64,000 nt of DNA, taken from the NCBI GenBank assembly GCA_016207275.1, contig JACQPY010000009.1, positions 27,637-91,636 of the forward strand, given 5' to 3'. Of the stretch, positions 1 through 3,595 are shown piece after piece. The position numbers were made by a program, and so were the translations under genes. A model generated the notes under the pieces. That model made no database searches. It worked only from the letters and a program-made list of their open reading frames with translations, and was not told the DNA's origin. Position 1 is the stretch's first letter, and each line of letters opens with the position of its first letter. The DNA is from Candidatus Kerfeldbacteria bacterium (GTDB lineage Bacteria > Patescibacteriota > Patescibacteriia > SBBC01).

Positions 1-111
1 AGATAAATCCCTCGCAAAGGTCAGTATACTACAATCACAGATATTGAGCGCGAAACTCTTTGATTTATTGATTTTTCGATCAATATATTTCAAGTCCGGC
101 TTTCTTCCAAA

Positions 112-1110
112 CTATTGCTGCCAAATCCAATACTCATTCAGCGCGTCTTCTTGTATTTTGTGTGTGTTGCCGTGACTGAGTAAACCGAGGTATGACTGCA
201 ATGTTTCGGCGGTGGAATGTTCTTTGATTCGCCGAATCATCCGATGCTTGGTTGTAGTTCGTAAGGTTCGATGATACGGATAGTGTTGCCAGCCGAGAAA
301 GTCAACGCCGGAAGCTAGTGTTTTGATGTGAATCTTATCCGGATGTAGTAGCAAAGCAAGCTTGTCGTTCAAGAATTGTTCAATCAGGGGGATTTGATCT
401 TTTAGCCATGCGCGGTCGTTAGAAAGGAAAACAAAATCATCAGCGTATCGGATATAGTATTTTGCTTTCAATCGGTGCTTCACAAATTGGTCAAACTCGT
501 TCATATAGATATTTACAAGTAGCTGTGACGTGAGGTTACCAAGTGGCAAGCCTTTCCCTAGCTGAGTATGAAAACTGGCAATGATGTTTTCCAATAACGC
601 TAGAATGTCTTTATCAGGAATGTACTGACGCAGTATCCCATTCAAGATGTTCTGGTCGATGTTAGCAAAAAACTTTCGGATGTCGCATTGCAATACCCAA
701 CATGTACGAGTGTTATTTTTGCCAACGCTTCCTGCCATACTCTTGAAGCGCTGTAGTGCTTTATGTCCTCCTTTGTTTACACGACACGAATAGGAGTCAG
801 CGATAAATGTTCGATCAAAGAATGGGTAAAGTTTCCGGTACACTGCGTGGTGGAGCAATCGGTCTTGAACGCTGGCTTTGTGAATATGCCGTGGCTTGGG
901 ATCGGTTATGTAAAAACTTTCGTATCCACTGTGTCGATAGGTCCGATTGGCAAGATCATCGTGAAGCTGTAAAATACTATCCATCAGATGGAGGCTGAAG
1001 GCTTGGACATCTGTGGCTTGTCGTTTACCTCGAAGAAACTCTTTCCACGCCGTCAGTAGATTCTCAGCCGAGATAATATCGTCGTATTTGAGTGGTAATT
1101 CGGCTTTCAT
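112..1110 (-). CDS. Diversity-generating retroelement (DGR) reverse transcriptase
   Basis: 332-aa ORF with RT motifs: N-terminal LxxAWxxFLRGKR, motif 4 variant LGNLTSQ (DGR-specific I/LGxxxSQ instead of group-II QGxxxSP) and YADDFVF catalytic motif. GC is about 40% against about 60% for the window. Lies next to TR/VR/avd. Confidence 0.9.
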   Translation of the reverse strand: MKAELPLKYDDIISAENLLTAWKEFLRGKRQATDVQAFSLHLMDSILQLHDDLANRTYRHSGYESFYITDPKPRHIHKASVQDRLLHHAVYRKLYPFFDRTFIADSYSCRVNKGGHKALQRFKSMAGSVGKNNTRTCWVLQCDIRKFFANIDQNILNGILRQYIPDKDILALLENIIASFHTQLGKGLPLGNLTSQLLVNIYMNEFDQFVKHRLKAKYYIRYADDFVFLSNDRAWLKDQIPLIEQFLNDKLALLLHPDKIHIKTLASGVDFLGWQHYPYHRTLRTTTKHRMIRRIKEHSTAETLQSYLGLLSHGNTHKIQEDALNEYWIWQQ

Positions 1111-1494
1111 ATGGCTTATAAACCGCCCCCCCAGCTTTGGAGCAACTTACCAATTCTACAGAAAGCATCCGACGCCTACAAAATCTGGCACGGCATGCTC
1201 CAAGAGTTTCCCCGTCTTGATCGGTTTACGGTCGGCGCTAAGGTCGATAGTTTGTTCGGGGAAGTATTAGAGTATATTCTGCTGGCTGGGTATTCGCAGA
1301 AGCCGCATAAATTACCACTCGTACAGCGTGCTACAACCAAACTGGATGCTGTGAAGTTCTTTTTGAATATCGCTTGGGAAATCAAGTCACTTGATAACAA
1401 AAAATATATTCGTTTATCCACGCCTCTGACCGAAATTGGAAAAATGCTGGGTGGCTGGCGCAAACAGCTTCAAAACGAAACTCCCTCGGAATAA
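1111..1494 (+). CDS. avd: Avd (accessory variability determinant), DGR four-helix-bundle accessory protein
   Basis: 127 aa. Segments ILLAGYS, VKFFLNIAWEI and LTEIGKMLGGW parallel Bordetella phage Avd (FIVAGKS, LRFWLRFLAGI, IAEVGRILGSW). Start codon abuts the RT start codon on the opposite strand. Confidence 0.75.
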   Translation: MAYKPPPQLWSNLPILQKASDAYKIWHGMLQEFPRLDRFTVGAKVDSLFGEVLEYILLAGYSQKPHKLPLVQRATTKLDAVKFFLNIAWEIKSLDNKKYIRLSTPLTEIGKMLGGWRKQLQNETPSE

Positions 1495-1535
1495 ACCGAG
1501 GGAGCCTGCCTGCCGCTAGGCAGGCGTGAGAAGAA

Positions 1536-1662
1536 TTGCAGACGGCCACGAAGCGGCAGTTCCGATTCCACTGATTGTCAGTCCAGTTCCAGTTCAGCTT
1601 CACGCCGTTCTCATTGCCGTTGACGTACGCGCGGTTCAGGTTACCTTTGCGCTGCACGGCGG
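1536..1662 (-). repeat. DGR template repeat (TR), 127 nt
   Basis: Matches 2035-2161 over 127 nt with 21 mismatches. Twenty are at positions where this copy has T on the + strand, i.e. A on the minus (sense) strand. Translated it is Asn/AAC-rich (VQRKGNLNRAYVNGNENGVKLNWNWTDNQWNRNCRFVAVC), not a real gene. Confidence 0.85.
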
Positions 1663-1928
1663 CCGCCAGATTGTACAGCTTATCGTCCGTATCACTGCCC
1701 ATTGAATACTCTCCGGGCTGTATTTTATTCGGGAGCCTTTACTCCGCTGATAGACTGCACCAAGTATCCTCTTCTTTCGAGGGCGCGAGGGACGCGCTGT
1801 CTACAGCCGTAGCCATAAACATTCCGGTCATCTCAGCGTACTAGATTTCAACCGCCCACAGCCTTGACCGTGAGCCGTATCGTTTACTATCCGAATGTAG
1901 TATAGAAAAGTTTTGGAAAATAATGAAG

Positions 1929-1975
1929 GCCCTGCTCATCCCCTTCGCCGAAGCGTTAGAGATGAGACAGGGCCC
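1929..1975 (-). other. Inverted-repeat hairpin downstream of VR/target stop
   Basis: GGCCCTGCTCATC...GATGAGACAGGGCC (13-bp arms) lies about 60 nt 3' of the VR end, the position where DGRs carry a hairpin/cruciform that enhances homing. Confidence 0.5.
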
Positions 1976-2030
1976 GTGGCTGCAAGGATCAAAGGGAATA
2001 CAGAGTTCCCAGTGCCCGAGAGCCGAAGCG

Positions 2031-2666
2031 CTACTTGCAGACGGCCACGAAGCGGCAGTACCGACCCCACTGAAAGTCAGTCCAGTCCCAGTACAGCTTC
2101 ACGCCGACCTCATCGCCGAAGACGTACGCGCGGTCCAGGCCCCCTCCGCGCTGCACGGCGGGTCCGATGAGACCGATGACCGGATGCTCCCGAATCTGCT
2201 CGGAGGTATGCCGACGAATGACGGTCTCGGACTCGGCCCGATCCGGCTGGCGGCAGTTGAGCTGCGCCATCCTGTCGAGCACTTCCTGATCGAGCGGATC
2301 GTGGTCGAACTCCAACAGGCGGAACCTGACCGGCTTCGTCCCCTTCTCCGTGATCGGATAGTCCTTGACCTTCACGTCGCCGACGTAGGCGTAGCGGTCG
2401 CGGTCGATGGTGCTCCATTGAGGATCGTCGTAGTTGACGGTCATCTCGAAGGCATCGCCGACCAGTCCCGGAACACCGAACACGCCTTCGATGATCTGCT
2501 GAAGCGCGCGGGCAGTGGTATCCGGATCGAGCGGGCTACCCGATTCCTGTTCGAGCTGACGCTTGATTTCCGCCATTCGCCGGTCGATCACATCCTTCTG
2601 CTCGCTGGTGACAACGAACTTCGTCGCCATTCCAAGCCTCCTGTCATAGAATACGTTTACCGCCAC
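2031..2666 (-). CDS. DGR target protein with variable C-terminal CLec-like segment
   Basis: 211-aa ORF. Its last roughly 42 aa (AVQRGGGLDRAYVFGDEVGVKLYWDWTDFQWGRYCRFVAVCK) are encoded by the VR and parallel the TR translation. No signal peptide. The start may be the internal Met at MATKFVV. Confidence 0.75.
   Translation of the reverse strand: MAVNVFYDRRLGMATKFVVTSEQKDVIDRRMAEIKRQLEQESGSPLDPDTTARALQQIIEGVFGVPGLVGDAFEMTVNYDDPQWSTIDRDRYAYVGDVKVKDYPITEKGTKPVRFRLLEFDHDPLDQEVLDRMAQLNCRQPDRAESETVIRRHTSEQIREHPVIGLIGPAVQRGGGLDRAYVFGDEVGVKLYWDWTDFQWGRYCRFVAVCK
2035..2161 (-). repeat. DGR variable repeat (VR) at the 3' end of the target gene
   Basis: Cognate of the TR. Differs from it at 20 adenine-derived positions plus one non-A position (TR 1643 a versus VR c on the + strand). 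The 3' 22 nt of the sense strand (CTGCCGCTTCGTGGCCGTCTGC) is A-free and GC-rich, like an IMH element. It ends at the target gene stop codon. Confidence 0.85.
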
Positions 2667-3151
2667 GACGTAAGTGTCGCAACAGCACGCATCCGCACGG
2701 CCGTATCTAGCCGTAGCGCTTAGACCAGGTTATTTCACTGATCTAGGCGCTACGGCCATATGTCTGCAAGGTTATCAACGAACGAAAGAGAATATCATGC
2801 CTACCTCAAAAAGTCAAGGCTTGACCGACTAACCTCGCAGTTACTTCATAATAAACGCAACCTATCACAATCAGACTACGGGTTGCAACTTTACCCTACG
2901 GTGCGTATCACTTAGCTTTTGAGAGGGGCAGCATCGAAGTCAAAAAGAAGATTTTTTCCGACTTAGGTTCGAACTTTATCCTACAGGACGGAAAGCTCAA
3001 TGTTTCCGTGGACATTCTGCTTTTTGCCATCAAGAACCTCTATAAAGGTGTTCAACAGAATCCGACAATGTTAGAACCAACAAAAACTCCCGTGAACAGC
3101 ACACGATCCGCCTCTTTTGAAGACGGATCACGTACTCTGCTCCGGGGGCGA

Positions 3152-3282
3152 CCCCGCACTATGACTCCTCGCTTTGCTCGGAGTCAAATGCGGGGCAAGG
3201 ATTCCCCGCACAACAGCCTTTGTTGCACTACGGCTCAATGCGGGGCGGCGAACCCTCGCCCCGAACCCAACGTGGTTCGGGG
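3152..3282. repeat. Cluster of three GC-rich hairpin repeats (CCCCGCA...TGCGGGG family plus CCCCGAACC/GGTTCGGGG)
   Basis: 3152-3195 and 3204-3245 each have CCCCGCA and TGCGGGG arms around a 30-nt loop related to GACTCCGAGC...GAAG. 3259-3282 is a perfect 9-bp stem. Confidence 0.6.
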
Positions 3283-3345
3283 GACAACCATCGTCTTAAT
3301 CCCGCACCGGAGAGACGATCGAGTGACTGTGCTGAAAAAAGTTGG

Positions 3346-3420
3346 TGGCTCCGCGGGTCGGATTCGAACCGACAACCAACCGGTTAACAGCCGGTTGCTC
3401 TACCATTGAGCTACCGCGGA
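3346..3420 (-). tRNA. tRNA-Asn (GTT)
   Basis: Minus-strand cloverleaf: acceptor TCCGCGG/CCGCGGA, D-arm GCTCAATGGTAGAGC, anticodon loop CTGTTAA, T-arm GTCGGTTCGAATCCGAC, discriminator G and encoded CCA. Confidence 0.85.
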
Positions 3421-3513
3421 ATCACCAACTTTTTTCAATTCATTCTCGGTGCGGGGCTGTTCTACCGCCCACCGCCGGAGGCGGGGTCCCGCCACAGACG
3501 GTGATGAGCCCTG

Positions 3514-3563
3514 CCCCGCATCACGCGACCCTGAGCCTGTCGAAGGGGGGCGTTGGTGCGGGG
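3514..3563. repeat. CCCCGCA...TGCGGGG hairpin repeat with GACCCTGAGCCTGTCGAAGG core
   Basis: Same family as 34632-34675. Encodes TLSLSKG in a spurious ORF. Lies between tRNA-Asn and rpoD. Confidence 0.55.
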
Positions 3564-3595
3564 TACCCCGGAGCTGCCCGCTCGGTGGCTGAACA

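Follow-up and report, generated by a model that had tools for sequence, protein, structure and literature searches.

A chromosomal diversity-generating retroelement of the CPR type in Candidatus Kerfeldbacteria

A 64,000-nt stretch of DNA from a Candidatus Kerfeldbacteria contig opens with what an earlier reading of its letters (the original prediction) took to be a complete diversity-generating retroelement (DGR) of probable foreign origin, made up of a reverse transcriptase (RT), an Avd protein, a template repeat (TR) and a target gene that bears a variable repeat (VR). The locus raises three questions: whether these parts are present and intact, whether the target has been rewritten from the template in the recent past, and where the element came from. 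The stretch, called the window from here on, covers positions 27,637-91,636 of the forward strand of contig JACQPY010000009.1 (GCA_016207275.1), and coordinates below are window positions. We conclude with high confidence that its first 2.8 kb are a complete chromosomal DGR of the type known in bacteria of the candidate phyla radiation (CPR), in the order target-TR-(avd)-RT. The RT, Avd and target are exact matches to proteins of a Candidatus Kerfeldbacteria metagenome-assembled genome (MAG), and the assignment of this host to the CPR, or Patescibacteria, is the depositor's taxonomy. All four canonical parts are intact (Table 1), and the element is complete and probably functional. The 64 kb hold a single VR, a single target and a single RT, with no further copies of the repeat, the target or the RT. 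The call of a complete DGR is borne out by the placement of the RT, a recount of the repeat mismatches, the predicted fold of the target and the differences between lineages, and the element is a routine member of a large CPR DGR clade that was already known.

Parts of the element and copying between its repeats

The repeat pair lies where the original prediction had put it, and aligns over 127 nt, ungapped, at an offset of 499. A recount gives 18 mismatches in place of the 21 first reported. The adenine bias itself holds, with 17 of the 18 at TR adenines (20 had been claimed), and the 17 positions that had been listed are exactly these. The adenines are those of the sense (minus) strand and read as T on the plus strand; 17 of the 33 are mismatched, against 1 of the 94 other TR bases (Fisher p=3.4e-11). 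The sole exception, at 1643, is a sense T>G change that is synonymous (GGT>GGG). The TR was rightly described as rich in AAC and Asn, with 7 AAC and 3 AAT codons, and 30 of its 31 in-frame adenines occupy codon positions 1-2. Eighteen codons of the TR are variable, which allows for about 6e17 possible proteins. Only a spurious open reading frame overlaps the TR, which is non-coding and near the RT, while the VR forms the 3' end of the coding target. As had been said, the VR encodes the last 42 or so residues of the target, but it ends 1 nt into the last sense codon and not at the stop codon (2031-2033). The 3'-most 25 nt of the TR (1536-1560) match VR positions 2035-2059 without mismatch, are GC-rich and resemble an initiation of mutagenic homing (IMH) element. 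Across 20 homologues of the target, the columns that vary are those of the AAY codons (Y, C or T) of the TR, and the scaffold residues are invariant.

Table 1. Features of the retroelement in window positions; the last row gives positions in the related loci named there.
Feature	Position	Strand	Description
RT	112-1110	minus	DGR RT, 332 aa, MBI4426174.1; Pfam RVT_1 E=1e-20
avd	1111-1494	plus (opposite to RT, TR and target)	127 aa, four-helix bundle; Pfam bAvd PF22296
Degenerate copy of clade homopolymer	1123-1132		CCGCCCCCCC on the plus strand, equal to G7 at 1126-1132 on the RT strand
Terminator-like hairpin	1481-1504, then UUUCGUUUUG at 1471-1480	minus (TR strand)	CUCCCUCGG-UUUAUU-CCGAGGGAG, from folding
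Extra hairpin	1504-1525	minus	GCCUGCC...GGCAGGC, between TR and terminator-like hairpin; in the window and L009 only
TR	1536-1662	minus	33 adenines, 10 AAY codons; conserved at the DNA level across five family loci
Structured leader	1663-1754	minus	directly 5' of TR; hairpin A 1732-1745, hairpin B 1695-1720 with conserved loop GAGAGUAUUCAA
Strong hairpin, then U-rich run	1927-1975	minus	55-105 nt downstream of the target stop, not adjacent to it
Target	2031-2630	minus	199 aa, MBI4426177.1 ('hypothetical protein'); N-terminal helical hairpin and predicted C-type-lectin-fold domain (about residues 60-199)
VR	2035-2161	minus	codes target residues 158-199
Promoter-like element and 5'-UTR hairpin	2705-2817	minus	upstream of target; TTGACT-17-TATTCT at 2817-2789, hairpin arms 2705-2728 and 2738-2761
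Homopolymer tract in related loci	L003 7488-7497; L004 7598-7609; L009 6686-6695; L013 1792-1801		present in most of L016-L094 too

The RT is deposited under the product name 'group II intron RT domain-containing protein', yet it carries both of the motifs that had been read from it, LGNLTSQ and YADD. Its best match among solved structures is 8ub7_A (E=8.5e-38, 134 bits), which we checked to be the brt product of Bordetella phage BPP-1, and it is placed far nearer to this enzyme than to group II intron RTs (about 1e-17, 66 bits). In the BPP-1 enzyme, bRT, the residues that promote adenine mutagenesis are R74 and the first residue of [I/V/L]GxxxSQ, the DGR signature (PMC7826257). The LGNLTSQ of the window aligns with IGSLTSQ of bRT and R74 is conserved, and the two mutagenesis residues thus align with R74 and with the L of LGNLTSQ. 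The distance of 400 nt that had been given between RT and repeat is nearly right (the RT starts at 1110 and the TR ends at 1536, a gap of 425 nt), and it had gone unmentioned that avd fills this gap. The avd and RT genes are divergent with abutting start codons (CAT directly followed by ATG). The Avd protein, which NCBI names 'four helix bundle protein', scores 48.2 bits with Pfam PF22296, for which the cut-off is 40, and a PDB sequence search with it gave no match.

The target is more likely 199 aa long than the 211 aa first proposed, judging by the ATG at 2630, the Shine-Dalgarno-like AGGAGG 6 nt upstream of it (2637-2642), the starts of its homologues and the NCBI annotation. It was said to have no signal peptide, and indeed neither a transmembrane nor a signal-like segment is seen (maximum 19-residue hydropathy 1.07, hydropathy being the only measure used), so the protein is probably cytoplasmic. 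Neither Pfam nor NCBIfam matches it, a PDB sequence search gave no match and a BFVD fold search gave nothing significant. In the structural model, the C-terminus adopts a C-type-lectin fold, as had been suspected, and the VR corresponds to the C-terminal 42 residues of this predicted fold. The original prediction held the target to be an unusual one, but CPR DGRs typically have small targets that lack a transmembrane segment, a signal peptide and any recognisable domain (PMC8144416).

Evidence that the VR has been copied from the TR comes from a close relative, L175 (Logan contig SRR22387800, 1-4238), whose DNA matches window positions 1310-2719 at 89.8% identity and whose target is 89% identical. 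Only 2 of 127 nt separate the TRs of the two loci, and at each of these positions a VR agrees with the TR of its own locus. Between the VRs, 19 of 127 nt are different; TR adenines account for 17, the private TR changes for the remaining 2, and the rest of the target gene differs by 6%. The pair of repeats within L175 has 18 mismatches, all at adenines. Since each VR carries the private substitutions of its own TR, TR-to-VR copying with adenine mutagenesis has occurred, on the evidence of these alignments, since the two lineages split. Variation confined to TR adenines had been proposed as a check on the element, and between lineages it is what is seen once the two positions that track the TR are set apart. 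Neither the RT nor the 5' half of avd is left in L175; its homology to the window breaks off inside avd at 1310, where unrelated genes take over. The locus is a cassette that has decayed or been relocated, and DGR cassettes of this clade do decay.

The same organisation recurs among the relatives of the element. In four close family loci, L003 and L004 (Patescibacteria MAGs), L009 (another Kerfeldbacteria MAG) and L013 (a Logan contig), the order is target, TR, reverse-strand avd, RT, and TR/VR mismatches fall only or almost only at adenines; their RTs are 61-75% and their targets 45-68% identical to those of the window. A scan of JGI metagenomes with an RT alignment gave at least 515 relatives, of which the best 80 (RT identity 59-67%) were taken for locus inspection, and avd lies on the reverse strand in all of these that have enough upstream DNA. 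A TR/VR pair was found in 59 metagenomic relatives, and in 55 of them at least 75% of the mismatches are at adenines. Phage DGR RTs in IMG/VR are 31-37% identical to the window RT, which by sequence identity groups with CPR RTs and not with those of phage or other cellular DGRs.

The target family has a distribution of its own. A profile search of 1.84 billion cluster representatives gave 366 matches at E<=1e-3 and 82 at E<=1e-10, nearly all of them 145-230 aa long; the family occurs in 4 of 185,579 species-representative genomes, and no homologue was found in IMG/VR. Among the 80 RT relatives, 4 have a target of even 20-25% similarity, so the RT/avd module evidently pairs with many target families. 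Three other loci (L011 6001-6849, L012 5082-5717 and L014 6001-6585) encode homologues of the lectin domain that lack the N-terminal helices and have C-terminal extensions, one of them fused to HNH_3. They sit in phage-like early or recombination modules with Rad52, RecT, RusA, NinG, ParB-methylase, CHAP and collagen-like proteins; neither TR nor RT occurs within 6 kb, and leader RNA of the kind described below is absent. It is a speculation compatible with these homologues that the target has an intracellular role in phage conflict. L005 (3150-4502) has two tandem paralogous targets whose VR regions match at 106 of 153 positions; its 11.7-kb locus holds no TR, avd, RT or leader RNA, and these targets are orphan or remotely served.

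RNA elements and a homopolymer tract at the avd start

The TR is flanked by structured elements on both sides. In an alignment of 52 loci, 90.1% of the cells in the leader stems are paired, compared with 71.5% in shuffles, and none of 500 shuffles reaches this value; 110 cells are changed on both sides (35.5 in shuffles), and the covariation score is 0.488, against 0.06-0.13 when the pairing partners are slid. A covariance model of the leader has one match in the window, at 80.7 bits, and also matches loci outside its training set (L175, L016, L040, L053, L083 and L095-097, three close IMG/VR relatives). The same model has 0 matches among about 50 outgroup phage DGR loci. No Rfam family matches the leader, and a relaxed threshold brought no Rfam match in the DGR region. 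Two Logan contigs from other sequencing runs, L001 and L002, both end at 1694, one nt past hairpin B and 31 nt before the TR, and the shared end suggests a population-level branch point. An extended -10 element (TGnTAnnAT) just upstream of the TR was considered and set aside, being seen in 4 of 54 loci only.

On the 3' side of the TR, the clade has a conserved AACUCUCUUC-like stretch followed by a hairpin and then UUUUGUUUU. In at least 30 of 54 loci an unbroken stem of at least 6 bp stands directly before the T tract, compared with 6% of shuffles; the arms have 30 distinct sequences, and the stem covaries across loci. These stems were scored per sequence and anchored at the T tract; RNAalifold on a MAFFT alignment gave no pairs, the stems being out of register. 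In the window, the stop codon of avd (1492-1494) falls inside the loop of the terminator-like hairpin. Two further elements accompany the target. The hairpin downstream of it folds at -53.1 kcal/mol (z=-3.8; 0 of 200 shuffles are as stable) and is likely the terminator of the target mRNA, an inverted repeat that follows the VR, or both. Upstream, the promoter-like site and the 5'-UTR (untranslated region) hairpin are shared with L009; the two stretches are 83% identical across 87 nt, and in this pair of sequences a GT/AC swap in the stem, which has 24-nt arms, is compensatory.

Taken together, these elements suggest how the DGR would work. Transcription of the TR would yield a separate non-coding RNA about 280 nt long, distinct from the mRNAs of the target, RT and avd; it would start with the two-hairpin leader (1754-1663) and end at the hairpin and U tract (1504-1471) that overlap the convergent avd stop. 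RT and Avd, divergently expressed, would attach to this RNA and copy it into cDNA, faithfully at C, G and U but randomly opposite A. The cDNA would then replace the VR, with the shared GC-rich 25 nt (1536-1560 / 2035-2059) marking the 3' boundary, and the output would be a hypervariable ligand-binding face on a small, probably cytoplasmic protein. The avd-proximal and Sp flanks are essential in the core DGR RNA of Bordetella (PMC7826257), and by analogy the leader and 3' hairpin would take their roles.

A further feature of the clade lies where avd and the RT diverge. A run of at least 7 G (mostly 9-12) on the RT strand separates the two starts in 70 of 75 related loci (G10 in 30, G9 in 23, G11 in 7, G12 in 5, G8 in 3 and G7 in 2), and any other G/C run in these loci is 6 nt or shorter. 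Among 76 outgroup phage DGR loci, no run longer than 5 was found upstream of the RT. The tract stands at the 5' end of the avd frame and codes for PPP. With two cases corrected by hand, 26 of 70 loci have a canonical start upstream of it that shares the avd frame; in at least 11 loci, canonical starts are lacking both before and after the tract. Near-identical loci form six groups, in which two pairs differ by 1 nt over 686-800 nt, each time within the tract (L033 G9 and L035 G10; L061 G10 and L063 G11); the single-G change between L033 and L035 shifts the frame of the upstream ATG. The window has the shortest tract seen, and an interrupted one; it lies within avd codons 5-8 (PPP) at a distance of 15 nt from the start codon of the RT, with the ATG of avd in frame.

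Poly-G contingency loci occur in Campylobacter, Neisseria and Haemophilus. We tentatively suggest that the G9-12 tract of the clade is likewise a phase-variable switch, which by slipped-strand events would stochastically set Avd, and hypermutation along with it, to on or off; the window would then have a short, interrupted, in-frame allele that is 'locked ON', a proposal about which we are equally hesitant. Assembly error at homopolymers, or a role of the tract at the transcript level, may also lie behind the pattern. Other roles were considered and rejected. The tract does not suit a Shine-Dalgarno sequence for the RT, the start of which is mostly 13-19 nt off, with many loci having an AAGGAG or GAGG of their own in between. 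A -10 box before the C tract on the avd strand, as for reiterative transcription, did not emerge as a clear hexamer in a 63-locus profile. Nor does avd seem to start at the conserved ATT/GTG after the tract, as codons there follow ordinary Ile/Val/Leu usage. If the tract is a phase switch, hypermutation of the target would at any moment be confined to a fraction of the population, and together with the two-hairpin leader it would form a CPR-specific layer of DGR control that is undescribed in the literature searched. No paper tying homopolymers or phase variation to CPR DGRs was found in that literature.

Alternative readings and the origin of the cassette

Several points weigh against a complete and working DGR. 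Avd scores 71.2 bits with NCBIfam DivGenRetAVD, for which the cut-off is 80. The 3' hairpin could be a plain avd terminator, or a bidirectional one. The ends, promoter and priming site of the TR RNA are inferred only. Because the last 25 nt of TR and VR are identical, IMH and IMH* are indistinguishable in the window; cases with identical IMH and IMH* exist (Wu et al., PMC5758913). Finally, the VR is 100% identical, at the consensus level, in L001 and L002, which come from two other runs. This last point also favours the notion that the locus is a DGR by descent that is now inactive, with a fixed VR and with TR/VR differences that are fossils of past retrohoming, as do the one non-adenine mismatch, the degenerate state of the clade homopolymer in the window and the loss of the RT and half of avd in the close relative L175. 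We consider this unlikely. The non-adenine mismatch is synonymous; the RT, Avd, TR and flanking RNA elements are intact in the window, with catalytic and signature residues present; and the VRs of the window and L175 each track the private bases of their own TR, which dates copying to after a recent split. That the locus is no DGR at all, and holds a group II intron or retron RT beside a gene fragment duplicated by chance, would agree with the group II name in the NCBI annotation and with sub-threshold NCBIfam matches of the RT to group II RT/maturases and to retron or DRT RTs. However, these matches stay far below their cut-offs (139.7 bits against 300 for group II RT/maturase TIGR04416, 57 against 235 for retron St85, 67 against 200 for Drt3a and 58 against 390 for Drt2), the RT motif is LGNLTSQ where the group II type would have QGxxxSP, Rfam searches matched neither group II intron RNA nor retron RNA, Avd is present, and the mismatches are adenine-specific at p=3e-11. 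The motif, score, Rfam, Avd and mismatch tests already refute this reading, and a complete DGR of the CPR type remains the best account of the locus.

The GC (guanine plus cytosine) contents underlying the claim of foreign origin are close to those first given, with 43.7% for the RT, 46.1% for avd, 62.2% for the target and 57.2% for the window. The inference drawn from them does not stand in the same way. Over 52 loci, the RT is on average 13 GC points below the non-VR part of its own target, by more than 5 points in 47 of them; it is 4.4 points below its flanks in the mean, and targets are about 9 points above theirs, whatever the host GC. In L003, L004 and L009, whose hosts have 40-49% GC, it is RT and avd that match the host and the target that stands out (58-64% GC, with GC3, the GC at third codon positions, at 0.71-0.84). 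Between the window (135-2441) and L003 the DNA moreover aligns without a break over 2,345 nt, a stretch that reaches from the target core across spacer, TR and avd into the RT. From the clade-wide gap, the low-GC hosts and this unbroken homology, it follows that the two-part composition is largely a property of the whole cassette, and the low GC of RT and avd, being clade-wide, is weak evidence of foreign origin. An assembly chimera behind the GC step was also rejected, as homology with other loci is continuous across it.

Two accounts of how the element came to its place differ in what they let move. It is quite improbable that the RT-avd-TR module alone was recently acquired from an organism of lower GC and captured a native, host-like target, which is what the claim of foreign origin amounts to if taken literally. 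This would fit the 44-46% GC of RT and avd beside flanks of 58%, a deficit (-14 points) that is the largest among the 52 loci, and also the named Kerfeldbacteria genomes, which by their names are mostly at 38-48% GC, and the two Logan contigs that both stop at 1694, just outside the module. Yet the target is GC-rich (58-64%) in all family loci, hosts of 40-49% GC included, so that its GC is no guide to whether it is native; homology is unbroken from the target core to the RT, the RT is some 13 GC points below the target clade-wide, and no integrase, transposase or att repeat was found in the window. On the other account, that the whole cassette of about 2.7 kb, from target promoter to RT, is a mobile or often relocated unit with a two-part composition, we are evenly divided. 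The composition of the cassette is conserved whatever the host, and its neighbours change: tRNA-Asn, rpoD and dnaG in the window, TGT and ClpB in L003 and L004, ATP synthase in L009 and EF-P in L013. Even in the 90%-identical L175 the flanks differ on both sides, with homology limited to window 1310-2719, and in the window 680 nt separate the cassette from a tRNA gene (tRNA-Asn), the 3' end of which faces it. On the other hand, no mobility gene or terminal repeat is seen in the window, with the left end of the cassette beyond it; CPR genomes rearrange freely, which makes loss of synteny alone weak evidence; and very few close relatives are sampled. Of the claim of foreign origin there remains a plausible movement, of the whole cassette, and two things point to it: the flanking genes that change from locus to locus, and the RT-to-flank GC deficit of the window, the largest of the set. 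Integration at the tRNA-Asn is not supported, with neither an att-like repeat nor an integrase in the window. Around the tRNA gene (3346-3420, minus) a 24-nt inverted repeat (3333-3356 / 3414-3437, with arms that are 92% complementary) prolongs the acceptor stem into both flanks, and GC-rich repeats of the 'GCGGGGC' type lie on either side at about 3140-3300 and 3430-3590.

Significance and comparison with known systems

The analysis corrects the public annotation, in which three separately named proteins can now be recognised as forming a DGR, with the 'hypothetical protein' as its hypervariable, predicted C-type-lectin target. Knowledge of DGRs in general is unchanged, for CPR genomes were already known to be rich in the same layout with small non-membrane targets. 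The window and L175 provide a well-resolved natural case of directional TR-to-VR copying. The two-hairpin leader, the terminator-like hairpin and the poly-G tract are features of the clade that are undescribed in the literature searched. The leader, the hairpin and the poly-G at the avd start could help in reconstituting a CPR DGR biochemically for the first time, and the elements of the clade bear on the question whether CPR targets act inside the cell.

The individual parts have likenesses outside the clade. Group II intron RT/maturases are the nearest class of non-DGR enzymes (66 bits) and share the RVT_1 palm and fingers with the window RT, which has no maturase or endonuclease extension and no intron RNA. 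The predicted target domain resembles the solved C-type-lectin folds of the C-terminal domains of Bdellovibrio Bd2740 (8oks) and Legionella Lcl (8q4e), and further those of intimin and of the FGE type (1y4j, PvdO); identities are 5-13%, and the target differs from these in being a minimal stand-alone domain with two helices before it. The clade tract resembles the poly-G contingency loci of Campylobacter, Neisseria and Haemophilus in being a G/C homopolymer (9-12 nt) at a reading frame's 5' end, in changing by one nt where sequences are otherwise identical, and in keeping the frame in about a third of cases; the window tract is just G7 and interrupted, the length differences in the clade come from assemblies, and the avd start codon is uncertain.

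As a whole, the element can be set beside the DGR of Bordetella phage BPP-1 (mtd-avd-TR-brt), with which it shares a homologous RT and Avd, adenine-specific transfer from TR to VR, a TR rich in AAY codons, a VR at the C-terminus of a C-type-lectin fold (predicted here) and a GC-rich 3' boundary. It departs from BPP-1 in that avd is inverted between TR and RT, the element is chromosomal and not phage-borne, IMH and IMH* are identical, and the target is a 199-aa protein predicted to be soluble, whereas that of BPP-1 is a tail-fibre tip. The RNA flanks also differ, with a 5' two-hairpin leader and a short 3' terminator-like hairpin in place of the 140-nt Sp region. The closest known systems are those of the CPR itself. 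A core order of TR-(avd)-RT with avd reversed is architecture B3, to which 90% of the DGRs in CPR belong (Wu et al. 2018, PMC5758913), and DGR clade 2 is restricted to Patescibacteria (Roux et al. 2021, PMC8144416). The two descriptions are equivalent for this comparison, and the window agrees with them in gene order, reverse avd and a single, small, adjacent target, as well as in its cellular, non-phage CPR host and groundwater-type samples. What sets it apart among CPR B3 DGRs is an uncommon target family, of stand-alone C-type-lectin proteins of about 200 aa, and the unusually high GC (58%) of its host; nothing essential differs.

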